Shown here: in pieces, positions 3-9,264 of the stretch
Layout: each line of letters starts with the position of its first letter
Position numbering within the stretch: position 1 is the first letter of the stretch
DNA from: a virus
Taxonomy: Duplodnaviria; Heunggongvirae; Uroviricota; Caudoviricetes
IMG/VR virus record: IMGVR_UViG_2548876863_000017
Reading direction: 5' to 3' (one strand)
DNA: 9,264 nucleotides
The notes under the pieces: generated by a model
Seen by the model: only the letters and a program-made list of their open reading frames with translations
What the model was told of the DNA's origin: nothing
The model's database searches: none
Program-made: the position numbers and the translations under genes

Positions 3-917
3 CATCGGGCATTATCTGAACATAAAACACTATCAATAAGTTGGAGTCATTACCGATTTAATATTAATAATTCCTCAGTTACTTATATTGATATTGACTC
101 CAATGATACAGACCATATTACTATTGGTATCGACAACCAAGAACCAATAGAATTACCTGCGAACTATAAAGACAAAGAACTCGTCCGTACTATCATTAAT
201 GACAACATAGTTGAGAAGACTCATGATATCAATAACAAGGAAATGATCTTCAGCGCATTAAAAGAAATATATGATGGAGATCCTGGTTTTATCTTCGATA
301 AGATATCACACAAACTCAGACATACGGTAACGGAATTTGATGAGAGCGGGAAAAGCGAACCAACGGACTTATTTACCTGGTACGGTAAAGATAAAAAAGG
401 CGACTCTCTCGCTATTGTAATTAAAAATAAAAACGGAAATGATTACTTATCTCTCGGTTACTACGATCAGGACGACTACCACATTCAAAGAGGAATTCGT
501 ATTAATGGTGATAGTCTCACCCAATATTGTAGTGAAAACGCCAGGAGTGCTTCAGCGTGGTTTGAAAGCAGTAAAGCTATCATGGCAGAATCATTTGCAA
601 CAGGTTCCGATCATCAGGTTATAAACGAGCTCAACGGGGAAAGACTGAGAGAACCTAACGAAGTTTTTAAACGTTTAGGTCGAGCAATAAGATATAATTT
701 TCAAGTGGACGATGCAAAATTTAGACGCGATAATGTAAAAGAAATAATTTCTAATTTATTCGCTAACAAAGTTGACGTTGACCATCCTGAAAATAAATAC
801 AAAGACTTTAAGGATCTCGAAGATAACGTTGAAAAAAGACTTCAAAATCGCCAGGCGAAATATCAAAATGAAATTAATCAACTATCTGCGCCAGGTGTTA
901 ATTTTGATGATATTTAA
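3..917 (+). CDS. yfdF: 3' portion of an AT-rich hypothetical protein gene whose 5' end lies left of the window; probable yfdF homolog by synteny
   Basis: Frame 3 is open from position 3 to the TAA at 915-917. Hand translation of 3-242 gives HRALSEHKTLSISWSHYRFNINNSSVTYIDIDSNDTDHITIGIDNQEPIELPANYKDKELVRTIINDNIVEKTHDINNKEMIF with no stop, so the 224-aa track ORF (243..917) is only the tail of a longer CDS. No domain recognised. The symbol is inferred from the K-12 gene order fadL-yfdF-mlaA-yfdC-argW as I remember it, not from recognising the protein. Confidence 0.55.
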   Translation, partial: HRALSEHKTLSISWSHYRFNINNSSVTYIDIDSNDTDHITIGIDNQEPIELPANYKDKELVRTIINDNIVEKTHDINNKEMIFSALKEIYDGDPGFIFDKISHKLRHTVTEFDESGKSEPTDLFTWYGKDKKGDSLAIVIKNKNGNDYLSLGYYDQDDYHIQRGIRINGDSLTQYCSENARSASAWFESSKAIMAESFATGSDHQVINELNGERLREPNEVFKRLGRAIRYNFQVDDAKFRRDNVKEIISNLFANKVDVDHPENKYKDFKDLEDNVEKRLQNRQAKYQNEINQLSAPGVNFDDI

Positions 918-2147: not shown

Positions 2148-3080
2148 ATGGACAACGACAAAATTGATCAACACAGCGACGAAATTGAAGTTGAGAGCGA
2201 AGAAAAAGAGCGCGGCAAAAAAATAGAAATAGATGAAGACCGACTCCCCTCCCGGGCGATGGCAATTCATGAGCATATCCGCCAGGATGGTGAAAAAGAG
2301 CTGGAACGCGACGCAGTGGCGCTACTGTGGTCAGCCATTGCGGCGGGTCTGTCGATGGGCGCTTCGTTACTGGCAAAAGGGATATTTCAAGTCGAACTGG
2401 AAGGTGTGCCGGGCAGCTTCTTGCTGGAGAATCTCGGTTATACCTTTGGTTTTATTATCGTCATTATGGCCCGCCAGCAATTATTTACCGAAAATACCGT
2501 GACTGCGGTACTACCCGTCATGCAAAAACCGACAATGAGCAACGTCGGCTTACTTATACGGTTATGGGGCGTCGTGCTGCTGGGTAATATTCTCGGGACA
2601 GGTATTGCGGCGTGGGCATTTGAATATATGCCTATCTTCAATGAAGAAACTCGCGATGCATTTGTCAAAATCGGCATGGATGTGATGAAGAACACCCCCA
2701 GCGAGATGTTTGCCAACGCGATCATTTCCGGCTGGCTGATCGCCACTATGGTTTGGATGTTTCCTGCAGCGGGTGCGGCAAAGATTGTGGTGATTATATT
2801 GATGACCTGGCTTATTGCCCTGGGTGACACCACCCATATCGTGGTCGGTTCTGTTGAAATCCTCTATCTGGTGTTTAACGGTACGCTGCACTGGAGCGAT
2901 TTCATCTGGCCCTTCGCACTACCTACTTTAGCGGGGAACATCTGCGGCGGCACCTTTATCTTCGCGTTAATGAGTCATGCACAGATTCGTAACGACATGA
3001 GCAATAAGCGTAAAGCAGAAGCACGCCAAAAAGCAGAACGTGCGGAAAACATTAAGAAAAATTATAAAAACCCGGCATAA
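2148..3080 (+). CDS. yfdC: YfdC, inner-membrane protein of the formate/nitrite transporter (FNT) family
   Basis: 310-aa product with an acidic, charged N-terminal extension followed by multiple hydrophobic helices, consistent with an FNT-type channel. Length and position (between mlaA and argW) match E. coli yfdC as I recall it. Confidence 0.8.
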   Translation: MDNDKIDQHSDEIEVESEEKERGKKIEIDEDRLPSRAMAIHEHIRQDGEKELERDAVALLWSAIAAGLSMGASLLAKGIFQVELEGVPGSFLLENLGYTFGFIIVIMARQQLFTENTVTAVLPVMQKPTMSNVGLLIRLWGVVLLGNILGTGIAAWAFEYMPIFNEETRDAFVKIGMDVMKNTPSEMFANAIISGWLIATMVWMFPAAGAAKIVVIILMTWLIALGDTTHIVVGSVEILYLVFNGTLHWSDFIWPFALPTLAGNICGGTFIFALMSHAQIRNDMSNKRKAEARQKAERAENIKKNYKNPA

Positions 3081-3155: not shown

Positions 3156-3230
3156 GTCCTCTTAGTTAAATGGATATAACGAGCCCCTCCTAAGGGCTAA
3201 TTGCAGGTTCGATTCCTGCAGGGGACACCA
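3156..3230 (+). tRNA. argW: tRNA-Arg, anticodon CCU (argW); probable prophage attachment site
   Basis: I folded it by hand. Acceptor stem GUCCUCU pairs with AGGGGAC (one G-U). Anticodon stem AGCCC/GGGCU has loop CUCCUAA, giving anticodon CCU. T-arm is UGCAG-GUUCGAUUC-CUGCA with the GTTCGA motif. Discriminator A and encoded CCA at 3228-3230. Total 75 nt. A P4-type integrase gene follows immediately. Confidence 0.92.
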
Positions 3231-3391: not shown

Positions 3392-4546
3392 ATGCTCACC
3401 GTTAAGCAGATTGAAGCAGCAAAGCCGAAAGAAAAACCATACCGCCTTCTCGATGGTAATGGCCTGTACCTTTATGTCCCTGTATCCGGGAAAAAGGTAT
3501 GGCAGCTTCGCTATAAGATTGACGGTAAGGAGAAAATCCTGACCGTCGGAAAATACCCGCTTATGACTTTGCAGGAGGCAAGGGATAAGGCATGGACCGC
3601 GAGGAAAGACATCTCGGTTGGCATCGATCCGGTAAAGGCGAAAAAGGCTTCGTCTAACAACAATTCCTTTAGTGCGATTTACAAGGAATGGTACGAGCAC
3701 AAGAAGCAAGTATGGTCAGTAGGGTATGCGACTGAACTTGCAAAAATGTTTGATGACGACATTTTACCTATCATCGGCGGCCTTGAAATTCAGGATATTG
3801 AGCCAATGCAACTGCTGGAAGTAATCCGCAGATTTGAAGATCGCGGTGCAATGGAACGAGCCAATAAAGCCCGCAGAAGATGCGGCGAGGTTTTCCGTTA
3901 CGCTATTGTCACCGGAAGGGCTAAATATAACCCGGCACCTGACCTTGCTGACGCCATGAAGGGATACCGCAAGAAAAACTTCCCGTTTCTTCCTGCAGAC
4001 CAGATCCCGGCATTTAACAAAGCACTGGCAACATTTTCAGGAAGTATCGTATCGCTCATTGCGACCAAAGTTTTACGCTACACAGCCCTAAGAACGAAAG
4101 AGCTTCGTTCCATGCTATGGAAGAACGTCGATTTTGAAAACAGGATTATCACCATCGACGCCAGTGTGATGAAGGGTCGCAAAATTCATGTGGCTCCTAT
4201 GTCAGACCAGGTGGTTGAACTTCTCACTACGCTAAGCTCTATCACCAAACCAGTATCAGAGTTTGTTTTTGCCGGGCGCAACGATAAGAAAAAGCCAATC
4301 TGCGAGAACGCGGTATTACTTGTGATCAAACAAATCGGCTATGAAGGTCTGGAAAGCGGTCACGGATTCAGGCATGAATTCAGCACGATTATGAACGAGC
4401 ACGAATGGCCTGCTGATGCTATTGAAGTGCAACTGGCACATGCCAACGGCGGATCTGTGCGCGGGATTTACAACCATGCTCAGTATCTCGATAAGCGCAG
4501 AGAAATGATGCAGTGGTGGGCTGATTGGCTAGATTGGAAAATATGA
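3392..4546 (+). CDS. intS: P4-type tyrosine integrase (site-specific recombinase), IntS-like
   Basis: N-terminus MLTVKQIEAAKPKEKPYRLLDGNGLYLYV... is the typical P4-family arm-binding domain. The C-terminal catalytic domain has an HxxR motif (HGFRHEF) and a candidate catalytic Tyr (GIYNHAQYLDK). It lies immediately 3' of a tRNA. The track ORF starts 12 codons earlier (ATG 3356), but ATG 3392 gives the canonical family N-terminus and a 384-aa product. The intS symbol is by analogy to the K-12 argW-adjacent integrase. Confidence 0.88.
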   Translation: MLTVKQIEAAKPKEKPYRLLDGNGLYLYVPVSGKKVWQLRYKIDGKEKILTVGKYPLMTLQEARDKAWTARKDISVGIDPVKAKKASSNNNSFSAIYKEWYEHKKQVWSVGYATELAKMFDDDILPIIGGLEIQDIEPMQLLEVIRRFEDRGAMERANKARRRCGEVFRYAIVTGRAKYNPAPDLADAMKGYRKKNFPFLPADQIPAFNKALATFSGSIVSLIATKVLRYTALRTKELRSMLWKNVDFENRIITIDASVMKGRKIHVAPMSDQVVELLTTLSSITKPVSEFVFAGRNDKKKPICENAVLLVIKQIGYEGLESGHGFRHEFSTIMNEHEWPADAIEVQLAHANGGSVRGIYNHAQYLDKRREMMQWWADWLDWKI

Positions 4547-4607
4547 TAACTATGATATTATCATTATTTACAACAATAAAGTTAACATACACTTTTGAGA
4601 CTTAGAT

Positions 4608-5699
4608 GTGATTAAAAAAAACCTAGAATCCATACAATTTCTTAGAGCGGTGGCAGTTTTGTTGGTGGTTCTATTCCACTACCGTTTTGATGCAGAATCT
4701 TTGATAGCAAACTCAAAGATAATTTTCTTCAATGGATCTATTGGGGTCGACCTTTTCTTTGTTATAAGTGGATTCATAATTTACTATGTTACCGACAACA
4801 ACAAAAAAGGCATTTTCGAGTCAGCATCGTTTATATTAAAGCGAGTAATTAGGGTTTTACCGCCTTATCTTTTAATATCATTTATTTTTGTTTATTTCGG
4901 TAATAAAGATTATATAAAGTTAATACAGTCAATCTCATTCATCCCATTATCTAATAAAGAACCTCCTTTTTATGGATACCCCTCTCTTGTTGTTGGATGG
5001 TCGCTTAACTATGAGATTTACTTCTACATCCTTGCGGCCATTGGGATAATGTTTTTTGGAAAGTGCAAATGGCTTGTTATATCAACATCAATAGTGTCAT
5101 TGATAATGGTGCTGGCATTAATAAACGGAAACATATCATTATCTACCAGTGTGGACTACAACATTAATAGTAGTTACCTTTCGATGGCAACAAATAGTAT
5201 TATTTTAGATTTCACTTTAGGTGTTGCGTGTGGATACTTAGCTAAGCGTGACAATAAGGTTAGCAATACAGCTGTAATAACACTATCTATAGTTTCTATT
5301 GCTATATTTATTATGTGTCTAATGGGTATTTTTAGGTCTGAGCATGGCCCTATGTTTTGGGGGTTGTCGTCATTCTTTTTGGTGCTATCATTTATTGAGC
5401 TAGAAAAGAGAAGCATTTTATATTTTCCTAAGATTCTTATAGTAATTGGCAACATGTCATTTTCAATATATTTAGTTCACATTCCGTGTCTTGTGCTATG
5501 TTATTATTTATTCAATAACATACATCCACTTTTCAACCTAGATAATAAACCTTTACTTATATTTCTATCATCATTAATAGCAACATGCATTTCTTCGTTT
5601 TTTTATTATCATTTAGTAGAGCGATATCTTTGTGAATATTTGAGAAAGTCCATTTTCTCAGCATTATTTATATTTAAAATTCATTCAAGATCTAATTGA
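4608..5699 (+). CDS. Acyltransferase-3 (AT3) family integral membrane protein; candidate phage-encoded O-antigen O-acetyltransferase (Oac/OafA-like) for lysogenic conversion
   Basis: 363-aa polytopic hydrophobic protein. The N-terminal helix carries the AT3 signature spacing of a conserved Arg and His ([14 protein letters not shown]: R13, 10 residues, H24). Position between int and tailspike is where Sf6 carries oac and P22 carries gtrABC (from memory). Start is GTG at 4608: an in-frame TGA sits at 4596-4598 and no in-frame ATG precedes the conserved motif. Only a weak SD (GAGA). Very AT-rich. Substrate and function are inferred. Confidence 0.78.
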
Positions 5700-7640
5700 T
5701 ATATACTTCTTAGCTGTCGACATCCATGGATAGGTTGTCGACGGAAGGTTTTTAAAATGAATTATTGTTTCTCCATTTGTTCCTATTGTCACATATGAGT
5801 TATCTGCACCAAAAGAAATTGTATTAAATCTTGTCATCCTTCCTTGGTACAAAACAGAATTAGAACCATCTGTTGATATTGCTCTAAATTCATATGTACA
5901 ATCACCGTCAAAATATATAGGAGTTATCGCAAATACCTCTTCTCCAGTGTAAGTCAGAGAGTCAATGCGATAGTTGCAGCAGTACTTAACATTATCATCA
6001 ATTGGGATTTCAGCAGTAGGATAAACAAATGGTAGCTGTGTTTTTAAGTTAATTAAGACTGAATTCTTGAATGTATCAGTATTAACAAGTTTTATATTTG
6101 GAAGAGATGTTCCATATTCTGAAACAGATATTTCAGCATTAACAAGGCCATACATGACAACCATGTCATGTATGTTAAACATCCATCCACCATCACCTAT
6201 CTTTAGAAGATGTGATTTAAAGTCGCCATCTGTTTTTCCCAATACTGTTTTAACATTCTCACAGTATATATTATTGAGATTTGTACTAAAGTTCTCACCA
6301 TTAATAGTGATCGCTCTATTCATTTGCTCGAAGGCGCTTCCAGAGAATGTTACATTCTGTGTATTATTTTGAGGGTAAGATGAATTGAATGGTTCAGAAA
6401 GTAAAACACCTAGATCCCTACCTGATATTTTACCTTTGAATGCAACGTTATTTGTTGCACGACCAAGGAATACAGGATACAAGCCTTTAACAGTATCATG
6501 GTCATCAATTATGCAGACATCATATTCAGGGTAAAATCCCTGAACTGAACTTATGGCGATTGCACACCTATAAAATGACACGTCTTTTATATAACACCCT
6601 AACGTAAAGCATCTAAGATTGAAGCAATTTGAAATACCAATGAATTGTATTCCTTCAAATGAAGAGTTTCTCACAATTGCATTGGCGATACAATCCTGAT
6701 CAGAAAGTCCTGATGTATTTGATGTGATCTGGCCTGATAAAAAATACCCTGTTTCAAAAAGAGGAGTAGTTGTAGTGTCAAGATCGGAAACAATTGTTGT
6801 CTGATCACCAACGAAAGCAGTATTAGAAGAAAATATAGTTTTCTGATTTAATGTATAAACGTAATTACCCAATCCTATTTTTCTTCGCTGACCATAGCTA
6901 CCTAACCCTGCGGCTATTGCTGCTTTCTGAAATGCAGGAGAAGAATCGAAATCCGTCTTTTGCTTCGCTGGATATGCGCCAAACCTATCAACATGCAAAG
7001 GAAGTGTCGTAACCCATTTGCTACCAAGCGAATCAATAAACCATGAACCACCATCTGTTTGACCTGGAATTCCAGTTTCACCAGTTCTTCGCATGATATT
7101 TGTTGCATGTGCAGTATTAAATGCGCCTACAGAATCAGCGTGATACTTTACAATAGTCATTGTTTTAATTGCAGATGGAAATGAAGAGGATAATGCAGTT
7201 TCAAAATCTGGAACATACATTGAAGATGCCAAATCATTCATATTGGCATTACCATAGCCAACCAAATAGGCACCATAACTGCCGGCAAGATCTTGCCTTA
7301 ATTGGTCAGGGTCATACTTCAACACATTAGGAAAATAGAACTGCTTCGCACCATATGCATCATAAACAGCCATAGAATGGCCTTGCACGGTAACGAATTT
7401 GGCAATCTGTCCGTTATATACCGGGTAACCAGCAGCGTTAATGATGATTGGTTGCGATACAGGAACATGAGAGCCGTCTTCGTTCTCCACATAAACCTGA
7501 ATCTGGTTTTCAGGATTTACCGGGTCAGTGTCAATTTTACCGATATAAATTTTGCCATTGGCAACCGCTTTAAAAGAACGAGCCATAGTGAAGAGTTGCG
7601 AAGGCATGCTTACCACAACATTTGCGGTGATATCTGACAT
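5685..7640 (-). CDS. Tailspike protein: P22-family N-terminal head-binding domain fused to an unrecognised, probably beta-helical, receptor-binding/depolymerase C-terminal domain
   Basis: From the ATG at 7640 (GGAG SD 7-8 nt upstream) the product begins [113 protein letters not shown]. From memory this matches the conserved N-terminal domain of P22 gp9 and the Sf6/HK620 tailspikes. The remaining roughly 540 residues do not resemble the P22 gp9 body as I remember it. The track ORF starts 16 codons upstream (ATG 7688), which I consider an over-extension. The 3' end overlaps the acyltransferase 3' end by 15 bp. Confidence 0.85.
5714..5753 (+). terminator. Possible weak intrinsic terminator for the acyltransferase transcript, embedded in the 3' coding end of the convergent tailspike gene
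   Basis: CTGTCGAC (5714-5721) can pair with GTCGACGG (5737-5744) as an 8-bp stem with one G-U. The 15-nt loop contains the perfect palindrome ATCCATGGAT. A TTTTT run at 5749-5753 follows, but 4 nt after the stem. Starts 15 nt after the acyltransferase stop. Geometry is imperfect for a canonical terminator. Confidence 0.25.
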
Positions 7641-7761
7641 TTCATTGCTCCAGACGAATGATATGATGCAACCATGATGTGATTGCATACCGAAATGGTA
7701 CTATTGAGTATTTATCCAGTAGGTTACGATGCCATTCCACCCAACTGGTGAGGCATCAAGG
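7641..7761. promoter_or_regulatory. Divergent regulatory region between the tailspike and mnt-like genes; candidate promoters and operator
   Basis: 121-bp AT-rich spacer between divergent start codons. Inverted repeat ATGCAA (7666-7671) / TTGCAT (7683-7688) with an 11-bp spacer. Repeated ATGAT(G) motifs at 7658-7667 and 7674-7679. A CACC-N5-GGTG dyad at 7738-7750 loosely resembles the CCAC/GTGG half-sites of the P22 mnt operator as I recall it. No promoter hexamers could be assigned confidently. Confidence 0.4.
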
Positions 7762-8028
7762 ATGTACAGCAAATACGACGAGGCGCAGTTTCACTTGAGA
7801 CTTCCGCATGAACTCCACGCGAAAATTAAGCAGCGTGCGAAGATGAATAACAGATCGCTGAACTCAGAGATAATTGCAGCGATTGAAGAATCATTGGATA
7901 AACAAAGCTCTGCATCAGTTTACATTGACGATGCAGAGCGTATGGCAGAACAACAATCTGATATGGTTAAGAAAATTGTCTTTGATACGCTTAAGACCAT
8001 GTATAGCAATAATAAAAAGGAAACATAG
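7762..8028 (+). CDS. mnt: Mnt-like ribbon-helix-helix (Arc/MetJ superfamily) repressor
   Basis: 88-aa product MYSKYDEAQFHLRLPHELHAKIKQRAKMNNRSLNSEIIAAIEESL...DDAERMAEQQSDMVKKIVFDTLKTMY. It aligns by eye with P22 Mnt as I remember it, both in the N-terminal RHH DNA-binding part (FNFRMPMEVREKLKFRAEANGRSMNSELLQIVQDAL) and the C-terminal tetramerisation helix (NDAERLADEQSELVKKMVFDTLKDLY). GAGG SD at 7750-7753, 8 nt upstream of ATG 7762. The track ORF starts at ATG 7729, 11 codons upstream; I prefer 7762 from the homology. Confidence 0.82.
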   Translation: MYSKYDEAQFHLRLPHELHAKIKQRAKMNNRSLNSEIIAAIEESLDKQSSASVYIDDAERMAEQQSDMVKKIVFDTLKTMYSNNKKET

Positions 8029-8098
8029 AAATCTAGTTTCCGGCTAAAATGGCATTACCTTCATGATATCCTGTGAAAAACTAAGGAGAGTTAACCAT

Positions 8099-8584
8099 AT
8101 GAAAAAATCACTGTTAATTATCCCGCTTCTGCTGGTTGGATGCGCAAAAGTAAGTGACTATCAAGCAAGTTGCGAACAACGCTATCAAAAGCTTAGCGAT
8201 ATGGCTAATTGCCTTGATGCCAGTGTGAAGAACGACTCACGCATGGCATCAGCACCAACACCTAAGCTGTATGTCCTTGCTGCAAAGATGCTCGGGCAAG
8301 GTGTCGATGAAGGCAAGATAAGTGACGCACAGGCAAGACTTGAGCTTCAGAATCTTTATGTTCAATTACAAAGCCAAGAACAAGCCCAACAAATAGCACA
8401 AAGCCAAGCATTCCAGCAGGCTTTATTGAATTATCAGGCTGTAAACACAATGCAAGCGATCGAGCAAAAAGCGCGCCAGCCTGTTATAACTCAACCTTAC
8501 CCAACACGCGTTGACACATATACAAACTGCAATTCAGGATTTGGAAACACGGTAACATGCAACAGTAGCAGTAATATCAGGTAG
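8099..8584 (+). CDS. Predicted outer-membrane lipoprotein of unknown function, Gln-rich; moron in the slot where P22 carries sieA; candidate superinfection-exclusion or lysogenic-conversion gene
   Basis: Strong SD AAGGAG (8083-8088), then ATG 8099. The product starts MKKSLLIIPLLLVGCAK: a type II signal peptide with lipobox LVGC, and Ala at +2 after the lipidated Cys, which predicts outer-membrane sorting. The mature part has a Gln/Ala-rich probable helical segment (LQSQEQAQQIAQSQAFQQALLNYQ) and a Cys-containing C-terminus. No family recognised. The track ORF (8063) is extended upstream by 12 codons. Confidence 0.75.
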   Translation: MKKSLLIIPLLLVGCAKVSDYQASCEQRYQKLSDMANCLDASVKNDSRMASAPTPKLYVLAAKMLGQGVDEGKISDAQARLELQNLYVQLQSQEQAQQIAQSQAFQQALLNYQAVNTMQAIEQKARQPVITQPYPTRVDTYTNCNSGFGNTVTCNSSSNIR

Positions 8585-8598
8585 TTATATCTTATCTT

Positions 8599-9264
8599 TT
8601 ATTGCTGTTCTGCTGTAATTTGACTTGAAAGTATAGGGCGTATCGCATTTGCAGCATTATTTAGCGCTCTTTCATAAGCTGGCGTTCCAGTTTTAGTGTT
8701 TGCCAGACGTAAGAGAGCATTCCTTGCTGCTTTGGACTCATACAAGCGCATCATTGCACCAAAACCAGCCTCAAGCCCCATTGATACGCCAAGGGTCGCA
8801 GTTGCGCCAATCGTCCTTATCCTGTTGGCTTGCGATTGCCCCGTCTGAGTTACTACATTTGCGGTGTCTGACCTTGCTGTTTGCTGTAGAACTTCATGAA
8901 GAGCATCAAGCTCTTTTATGTGCTTTCCAGAAAAAATAGTGTTGTAAATTTCACCGCCTGACTGAGATTTCAGCTTATTAACTTCAGTGATGAACTTGGC
9001 TGGAGAGTCCCCGGCCTTTTCCGCTATTTTGCTGACGTAAGCTGCACGCATAGCATCTTTCCCCTTATCATCCAGTGCGCTCCAGATTCGTTTCACGTCA
9101 GATGGTTTTCTGCTTAATACAACGGTATTTATAAGTTCAGGACTGGCTTCACTGCTTGCCTTGTTGAGCTTGTTGGCAATGTTTTTATTAAGCACCTTAT
9201 TATAAACGTTGTAAGCGTACAGCGAGGGCCGTATTGACGGGGATGTGTTATTCAGCTGGCAGTG
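8599..9264 (-). CDS. 3' portion of a phage late gene (5' end beyond the right edge); possibly an ejection/injection protein (P22 gp16-like) by synteny
   Basis: I translated the - strand frame from 9264 down to the track start (GTG at 9195) and found no stop (...[33 protein letters not shown]...), so the track ORF start is an artefact of the window edge. Stop is at 8599-8601. Same orientation as the tailspike and convergent with the lipoprotein. The functional call is from position only; I do not recognise the sequence. Confidence 0.5.

Follow-up and report, generated by a model that had tools for sequence, protein, structure and literature searches.

A stand-alone AT3 acyltransferase gene, most likely for lysogenic conversion, and its pairing with a tailspike receptor-binding region in a P22-like argW prophage of Escherichia coli

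The argW locus and the acyltransferase gene

The window analysed here, i.e., the whole stretch of 9,264 nucleotides, belongs to the E. coli chromosome and matches contig JABXUO010000002.1 (assembly GCA_014105715.1) with 100% identity. It contains the tRNA gene argW with the genes next to it and part of a P22-like prophage integrated at this site; the features are collected in Table 1. A scan of the window against Rfam gave the tRNA as sole match. The prophage integrase IntS has a length of 385 amino acids if the start aligned to the Int protein of Shigella phage Sf6 is taken (384 amino acids in the PGAP call), and 378 of 384 positions (98%) are identical between the two proteins. In the source genome, the prophage is interrupted by IS elements.

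Table 1. Genes and further features of the analysed window.
Feature	Position	Strand	Evidence or remark
yfdF, interrupted	243-917		leftmost gene of the window
mlaA	1099-1854	-	51.5% GC
yfdC	2148-3080		between mlaA and argW
tRNA-Arg (CCT), argW	3156-3230	+	ARAGORN; Rfam tRNA, 63 bits; prophage attachment site and left boundary
intS, prophage integrase	3392-4546	+	Pfam Phage_integrase and Arm-DNA-bind_3
sigma-70-like promoter candidate for the AT3 gene	4534-4561	+	consensus scan; overlaps the int end
variable cassette, AT3 gene and tailspike receptor-binding part	4542-7295		blastn break points
ribosome-binding region, weak	4597-4610	+	GAG 4597-4599, GTG start 4608-4610; read from the sequence
AT3 acyltransferase gene	4608-5699	+	Pfam, PHROG, AF2, conserved motifs
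overlap of the convergent AT3 and tailspike 3' ends	5685-5699		15 bp; ORF coordinates
tailspike gene, P22-type	5685-7640	-	convergent with the AT3 gene
tailspike receptor-binding part, about aa 116-651	5685-7295	-	35.6% GC; beta-helix depolymerase-like
hairpin followed by UUUUU, candidate intrinsic terminator for the AT3 transcript	5708-5753	+	RNA fold
tailspike N-terminal P22-type head-binding domain	7296-7640	-	Pfam PF09008, E 7e-67
mnt	7729-8028		beyond the tailspike gene; followed by a lipoprotein-like ORF and a truncated gp16-like gene

Directly of interest is the AT3 gene located between intS and the tailspike gene, which the ORF listing gives as a reading frame of 363 amino acids with a GTG start. 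The 1092-nt CDS is likewise called by PGAP, from this GTG onward, in two complete E. coli genomes (WP_024239904.1, "acyltransferase family protein"), which confirms the gene as it had been proposed in a preliminary description of this DNA. An error of frame or start site was rejected, because the GTG is the sole in-frame start 5' of the codon for the essential R13 and is also the one used by PGAP. A 93-aa antisense ORF inside the gene (5174-5455) was considered spurious. While the GTG start itself stood, the in-frame TGA that had been placed directly before it was found at 4596-4598, three codons upstream; an out-of-frame ATG-TGA (4606-4611) overlaps the start. The SD sequence is as weak as previously described and consists of the GAG listed in Table 1 only. 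In the orthologue of Obesumbacterium, an ATG is found at the codon where the E. coli copy has GTG, and the SD is equally weak. A start-codon change in the AT3 gene is plausible, and, given the weak SD of the orthologue, the gene seems to be translated at a low level as a rule.

In the lysogen, the AT3 gene is probably transcribed from a promoter of its own directly behind int, for which a consensus scan gave a sigma-70-like candidate (TTGGAA, 16 nt, TG-TATTAT) as a pattern match only. At the equivalent position, a putative oac promoter is annotated in Sf6. The transcript probably ends at a candidate hairpin within the 3' end of the tailspike gene, which starts 9 nt past the AT3 stop codon and is embedded in the last tailspike codons. 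Folding of the RNA segment 5690-5765 resulted in -18.4 kcal/mol (z = -2.3). The hairpin sequence is conserved in Obesumbacterium and Buttiauxella; the segment is, however, also under coding constraint, which could explain this conservation.

Family, motifs and fold of the AT3 protein

As sole Pfam domain of the protein, PF01757 (Acyl_transf_3) was detected with an E-value of 2.5e-31 and 109.4 bits versus a cut-off of 31, and the alignment covers residues 7-334 of 363 and profile positions 2-325 of 326. PHROG 3333, labelled "O-acetyltransferase", matched residues 3-348 to profile positions 3-361 of 372 (E 1.1e-58). The AF2 model (pLDDT 94.4, 119 homologues) features about 10 long or transmembrane helices, and the hydropathy peaks agree with approximately 10 transmembrane helices. 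It stops after helix 10, so that, according to Pfam and AF2, the architecture is AT3-only, lacking both an SGNH domain and an 11th helix. The earlier view of an AT3-domain-only membrane protein is hence borne out.

The same applies to the conserved Arg/His pair suggested for helix 1, which is represented by R13 and H24 with the X10 spacing of the R-X10-H motif. Both residues are invariant or nearly so across the 119 homologues, as is R79-V-I-R82, which fits the RXXR motif at helix 3. Moreover, E338 is conserved and aligns with a further conserved and functionally important glutamate of AT3 proteins. The motifs R/K-X10-H and RXXR were defined, with mutational evidence, in previous studies (PMC9558356, PMC9833829), and these motifs as well as the glutamate were reported to be essential in Oac, OafA and OafB (PMC9558356, PMC9833829). 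Assignment to the size class of phage and Salmonella O-antigen acetylases, as initially put forward, fits one of the two proteins named: Sf6 Oac (OacA) is likewise an AT3-only O-antigen O-acetyltransferase and comprises 333 amino acids versus 363 here, whereas OafA is a larger AT3-SGNH fusion. In fact, Salmonella OafA, OafB and GtrC(BTP1) have the AT3 domain and the motifs in common with the prophage protein, but additionally possess one more helix and an SGNH domain in the periplasm, both of which are absent here; OatA is likewise of the AT3-SGNH type.

In a PDB sequence search, nothing matched the AT3 protein at an E-value of 1 or better, no equivalog was matched in NCBIfam, and the PADLOC defence-system models gave no family at E 0.01 or better. 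A fold search against the viral models of BFVD yielded a single unnamed protein of 637 amino acids and was uninformative. Human HGSNAT, an acetyl-CoA-dependent acetyltransferase whose acceptor glycan lies on the opposite side of the membrane, was the best fold match of the AT3 model in the PDB (prob 0.99, TM-score 0.40). This transmembrane protein has been solved with acetyl-CoA (PDB 8vli, 8vkj); with an identity of only 12-15% and its eukaryotic lysosomal origin, it offers a mechanistic analogy only.

In comparison to the Obesumbacterium and Buttiauxella orthologues, the dN/dS of the AT3 gene was about 0.15-0.18, at a dS near saturation, and the gene is, judged from these ratios, under purifying selection. 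Such values argue against the idea of a remnant in decay that is hardly or not expressed and whose product no longer matters. This idea could draw on the GTG start in place of the ATG of the Obesumbacterium orthologue, on the weak SD and on the IS elements cutting the prophage of the source genome, but the ORF is intact and the identical protein is present in contigs from 237 blocks of the sequence collection, all catalytic motifs are retained and the SD of the orthologue is weak, too, i.e., low translation seems to be the normal state. Furthermore, the AT3 gene has stayed intact beside disrupted tailspike genes, namely in E. coli OkiPb01684, where the tailspike is split by IS1, and in F829, where the matching tailspike is truncated to a 165-aa remnant. 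Altogether, we regard decay as very unlikely. The stand-alone AT3 inner-membrane acyltransferase is instead most likely a lysogenic-conversion gene of the P22-like argW prophage.

A cassette formed with the tailspike receptor-binding region

The N-terminal head-binding domain of the neighbouring tailspike matched the N-termini of the Sf6 and P22 tailspikes in the PDB and is common to the O26 and Sf6 prophages. The tailspike model is beta-rich and, at a pLDDT of 67, only moderately confident, being poor for the first 115 residues; its best match was the Sf6 endorhamnosidase tailspike (2vbk, E 1e-5), followed by capsule depolymerases, and the best PHROG is labelled "colanic acid degradation". 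From the model, the protein looks like a glycan-binding depolymerase, whose predicted fold does not discriminate between an O-antigen and a capsule target. For the receptor domain, dN/dS amounted to about 0.08-0.14, again at a dS near saturation, so that this part is under purifying selection as well.

Comparison by blastn delimited the exchanged segment with break points at 4541 and 7296 versus an argW prophage of E. coli O26:H11 and at 4534 and 7300 versus Sf6. As homology is lost at 4534-4541 and regained at 7296-7300, the exchanged unit consists of the AT3 gene and the tailspike from about residue 115 onward, and this cassette replaces the corresponding segments of both Sf6 and the O26:H11 prophage. 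Similarity to other genera covers a core of about 2.6 kb (4606-7187): the alignment with Obesumbacterium extends over 4609-7187, with 72.6% nucleotide identity over the main segment 4609-6680, and that with Buttiauxella over 4606-7182, with 66%.

Obesumbacterium proteus and Buttiauxella gaviniae also harbour the closest AT3 homologues (Table 2). Both genes are convergent with a tail-protein gene and show the same overlap of the 3' ends (15 bp in Obesumbacterium, 12 bp in Buttiauxella). The values given for the receptor domain of these two species refer to the C-terminal approximately 535 amino acids of the tail protein as compared with the E. coli tailspike. The N-termini and the phage backbones differ, with no Pfam domain on record in Obesumbacterium and Tail_spike_N in Buttiauxella versus the P22 head-binding domain here; both loci, moreover, lack an adjacent integrase, and their AT3 genes start with ATG. 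At the sequence level, the AT3 gene and the C-terminal approximately 535 amino acids of the tailspike are thus seen as a cassette recurring across three genera. While a prophage-encoded AT3 conversion gene is of a known kind, its pairing with a receptor-binding domain across genera is the added finding.

Table 2. Identity of AT3 relatives and of the adjoining receptor domains to the proteins of the E. coli cassette.
Locus	AT3 protein	Receptor domain
Obesumbacterium proteus	74%	65%
Buttiauxella gaviniae	54%	64%
Xenorhabdus bovienii (truncated AT3)	51%	28% over 240 columns
E. coli P0054	34%	none
E. coli O26:H11 prophage	32%	none
E. coli P0109	31%	none

The similarities of AT3 protein and receptor domain drop together, and at an AT3 identity of 34% or less no receptor-domain similarity was detectable. 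A tailspike or tail-fibre gene adjoins the AT3 relatives in all 7 genomic loci and in 9 of 10 IMG/VR contigs. The family of the receptor domain is tiny, with 6 clusters of relatives found, and in two cases, a lytic-like phage contig and the end of a prophage, no AT3 gene lay next to the domain. A pattern scan of genome contigs, which relied on very generic peptides, gave, among the matches listed, distant AT3 proteins of mostly 22-35% identity and a few short segments of up to 45%, almost all of them from non-enteric bacteria and MAGs.

This linkage is also relevant for the question whether the AT3 protein could serve a function unrelated to the phage receptor, e.g., peptidoglycan O-acetylation or the acylation of small molecules, and merely be carried along at a prophage end prone to recombination. 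The functions of AT3 proteins vary widely (PMC9558356), and the NCBIfam and PDB sequence searches gave no characterised close homologue. In addition, phage Kapi1, which likewise resides at argW, provides a precedent for a gene in the same slot lacking an LPS phenotype, as the change in the LPS ladder neither required the gene lying between its tailspike and int nor was brought about by this gene alone. The Kapi1 result implies that position alone can mislead, although acetylation may escape detection by SDS-PAGE. Against a function of this type stand the presence of a receptor-binding tail protein next to AT3 in 16 of 17 loci across phage types, the joint variation of AT3 and receptor-domain similarity, and the SGNH domain that is fused to known AT3 peptidoglycan O-acetylases (PMC9558356) and absent here. 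We therefore consider an unrelated function most improbable.

A further step would be to understand AT3 gene and tailspike part as a discrete "recognise-and-mask" unit, which would be moved intact between unrelated phages and enterobacterial genera, interlocked by the overlapping 3' ends and by a terminator within the last tailspike codons, and in which the acceptor of the AT3 enzyme would co-evolve with the glycan specificity of the tailspike. We put this forward tentatively, as a possibility that may well turn out to be wrong. If true, the AT3 sequence could predict phage receptor glycans, and the tailspike sequence could predict AT3 acceptors.

The base composition gives further hints on the origin of the cassette. 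According to the preliminary description, sample lines of the AT3 gene had a GC content of 20-28% against about 53% in mlaA, and the gene was probably acquired separately from the rest of the prophage. These statements need to be corrected: the complete AT3 ORF has 31.6% GC (60-nt lines from 23% to 43%, median 32%), values of 20-28% are confined to the lowest lines, and mlaA is slightly lower than assumed (Table 1). The low-GC tract does not end with the AT3 gene, but runs through the receptor-binding part of the tailspike to about 7290, and GC rises only in the head-binding domain (43.6%). Instead of a separate acquisition, the AT3 gene constitutes half of the roughly 2.6-kb cassette together with the receptor-binding domain of the tailspike. 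Since the cassettes of Obesumbacterium and Buttiauxella are equally low in GC (AT3 30-32%, receptor domain 36%, flanks 48-49%), this feature is a long-standing property of the cassette rather than the trace of a recent separate import.

Characterised relatives and the probable acceptor glycan

The closest counterpart regarding the genomic setting is phage Sf6, which integrates at the same argW site and carries oac in the same slot and orientation between int and a convergent tailspike gene. The lysogenic-conversion slot proposed for the AT3 gene is thereby supported, as the order intS-AT3-convergent tailspike at argW is that of Sf6. Sf6 Oac and the prophage protein have the R-X10-H and RXXR motifs in common; their similarity, however, is restricted to the N-terminal half, with 24% identity over 196 alignment columns (E 4e-4). 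Differences were further found in GC content (41.8% for Sf6 oac versus 31.6%), in the 3' region, where Sf6 features an intergenic terminator between oac and tailspike in place of the 15-bp overlap, and in the tailspike, the receptor domain of Sf6 having no sequence similarity to that of the prophage. Judged by these comparisons, the AT3 gene is a non-orthologous occupant of the Sf6 oac slot.

A second argW prophage for comparison is found in E. coli O26:H11. Its AT3 protein (WP_000440209.1) belongs to the same subfamily (32% over 358 columns, E 4e-38) and its backbone is 97% identical at the nucleotide level on both sides of the cassette. There, the AT3 gene also adjoins the tailspike gene, but lies in the opposite orientation and is co-directional with it; the receptor domain of the tailspike is unrelated, and the AT3 protein is likewise uncharacterised.

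Among stand-alone AT3 proteins acting on surface polysaccharides, Oac of Pseudomonas phage D3 was matched by tblastn with 28% identity over 71% of the query (E 6e-6). D3 oac forms part of a three-gene conversion module. ExoZ of Sinorhizobium meliloti (pSymB exoZ) gave 26-29% over about 70-79% of the query (E about 1e-9); this enzyme acetylates succinoglycan and is encoded in an exopolysaccharide cluster of non-phage origin, whereas the AT3 gene studied here lies in a prophage. Neither of the marks of an ExoZ-type enzyme, i.e., location in an exopolysaccharide cluster and close similarity to ExoZ, was found for the prophage AT3. The homology to Oac and other AT3 proteins expected from the preliminary description thus exists, but is remote: the values for Sf6 Oac (24%) and D3 Oac (28%) are no better than those for ExoZ. 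As a consequence, the assignment to the O-antigen follows from the context and not from the sequence.

Taking the AT3 relatives and the tailspike context together, acylation of the receptor glycan is the best reading, and we consider it likely that the AT3 protein is a lysogenic-conversion enzyme acetylating the glycan which serves as receptor for the tailspike, probably the LPS O-antigen, and thereby altering the serotype and blocking the phage's own tailspike. From work on AT3 proteins, we infer that cytoplasmic acetyl-CoA would act as donor and enter a pore lined by R13, R79 and R82, and that H24, situated close to the periplasmic face, would be the site where a surface-polysaccharide sugar receives the acyl group. 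The acceptor would be the glycan that is bound and cleaved by the adjacent tailspike, in the probable case LPS O-antigen. Its acylation could change the serotype and prevent cleavage or use of the receptor by the phage's own tailspike and by related phages, resulting in superinfection exclusion and a protected O-antigen of the lysogen. For such a role of the AT3 protein, a precedent is given by Sf6 Oac, as acetylation by this enzyme blocks the Sf6 endorhamnosidase (PMC9558356). GtrC of BTP1 is reported to represent a further functional precedent for O-antigen acetylation (PMC4413052).

An alternative option would be that the AT3 protein acylates a capsule or exopolysaccharide targeted by the tailspike, such as a K antigen, O-antigen capsule, colanic acid or ECA, instead of the LPS O-antigen. 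In this respect, the tailspike model fits capsule depolymerases of Klebsiella and Acinetobacter almost as well as the Sf6 tailspike, but the nearest structural match remains an O-antigen endorhamnosidase. The P22-like phage CUS-3, also an argW resident, has the K1 capsule as its target and modifies it, which counts for an acceptor of this kind, as do the PHROG label "colanic acid degradation" of the tailspike, the similarity of AT3 to ExoZ, which equals that to O-antigen acetylases, and the occurrence of the cassette in three genera. Conversely, of 5426 complete E. coli genomes only 2 contained the AT3 gene, and such a low frequency is more in line with a rare, serogroup-specific glycan than with the common ECA or colanic acid. 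Furthermore, the receptor domains of tailspikes from E. coli Lederbergvirus prophages generally track the O serogroup of the host (PMC10408124). On balance, we view a capsule or exopolysaccharide acceptor as rather unlikely. The O-antigen acetylation module suggested earlier can consequently be retained as a probable surface-glycan acetylase, based on slot, motifs and linkage to the tail gene, while its acceptor could be another glycan targeted by the tailspike, e.g., capsule.

When prophages acylate the O-antigen, the serotype, the epitopes relevant for vaccines and the sensitivity to phages are altered. In this context, the AT3 gene would be a further uncharacterised example, present in bovine and STEC-associated E. 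coli, and leaves the current understanding of such conversion systems unchanged. Together with the tailspike, it offers a testable matched pair of a putative depolymerase and an enzyme that would protect against it. For the annotation of this AT3 clade, the rule would be to inspect the neighbouring tail protein.

Concerning the hosts, the gene order mlaA-yfdC-tRNA-intS was conserved at 10 of 10 loci with the identical AT3 protein, among those listed. The gene was present in complete genomes of serotype O109:H10 (OkiPb01684; PMC12613899) and serogroup O49 (F829), and the two hence give no clean serogroup link. The O49 type of F829 is not informative for the AT3 gene, because its tailspike is a remnant and is followed by a second, different module of AT3 gene and receptor domain. 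This second module was found in no other complete genome, including five other O49 genomes. In OkiPb01684, fliA and rihB are direct neighbours owing to a rearrangement bounded by IS1, and the rfb region is located elsewhere.

Tandem modules and relatives of the cassette components

In E. coli F829 (O49), two AT3-plus-tailspike-C-terminus modules are arranged in tandem, as is also the case at loci L012 and L013. The first F829 module consists of the AT3 gene of the window and a 165-aa remnant of its tailspike, and the second comprises a different AT3 gene (354 aa, 29% GC) and a tailspike of its own that is interrupted by an IS3 element. This arrangement looks like the footprint of a cassette exchange by recombination.

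The receptor domain of the window tailspike belongs to a very small family, for which a set of 5.8 billion proteins yields six clusters at 90% identity. Among isolated phages, the closest relative of the domain occurs in PhiG17, a virulent phage of E. coli O157:H7, with 31.6% identity across 70% of the query.

A longer AT3 relative of 655 aa is encoded on the IMG/VR contig L119, and by its length it could be of the AT3-SGNH type. Here, the convergent neighbor is not a tail gene, but another gene resembling O-antigen acetylases (PHROG 6705).

Coordinates of the features discussed in this part
Feature	Sequence	Position	Remark
yfdF	window	243-917 (and 1-242)	224-aa ORF
ATGTGA	window	4606-4611	overlaps the GTG start (4608-4610)
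Tailspike receptor domain	window	5688-7301
173-aa ORF	window	8063-8584	between mnt and the gp16-like gene; PHROG 6067 match
gp16-like DNA-transfer gene	window	8599-9195	198 aa, truncated
IS66 and IS3 elements	source contig (L008)	12641 onward	downstream of the gp16-like gene
Tandem modules	F829 (L002/L006)	8001-14014
Region of the AT3 relative and its convergent neighbor	IMG/VR contig (L119)	1073-5165	AT3 relative is a 655-aa ORF
fliA-rihB junction	OkiPb01684, NZ_AP042519.1 (L022)	about 2,658,500-2,661,300	via IS1 copies

State of the prophage and the ORF following mnt

Since the gp16-like gene is truncated and followed by IS66 and IS3 elements, the prophage of the source strain is a remnant; despite this state, the AT3 gene and the tailspike are both intact. 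The ORF preceding the gp16-like gene has no match in Pfam; it matches PHROG 6067 (E 2e-110), whose function is unknown. If the second Met serves as start, its product carries a lipoprotein-type signal (…LLLVGC…). In the gene order of P22, sieA presumably sits at a roughly equivalent position, and the ORF may represent another moron or a superinfection-exclusion candidate.

AT3 start region and chromosomal surroundings

At the start of the AT3 gene, an out-of-frame ATG is immediately followed by TGA. Such a minimal start-stop could compete with, or be coupled to, initiation at the GTG, but it may equally be a chance occurrence.

On the chromosomal flank, yfdF (36% GC, which is low) appears to be interrupted in the source strain, as only a 224-aa ORF is open in comparison to 352 aa in most other strains; in two other assemblies, the gene is split into 147 and 215 aa. 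In OkiPb01684, a truncated fliA is joined directly to a rihB fragment via IS1 copies, and consequently the segment of about 250 kb normally holding his, rfb and gnd sits elsewhere in this genome.
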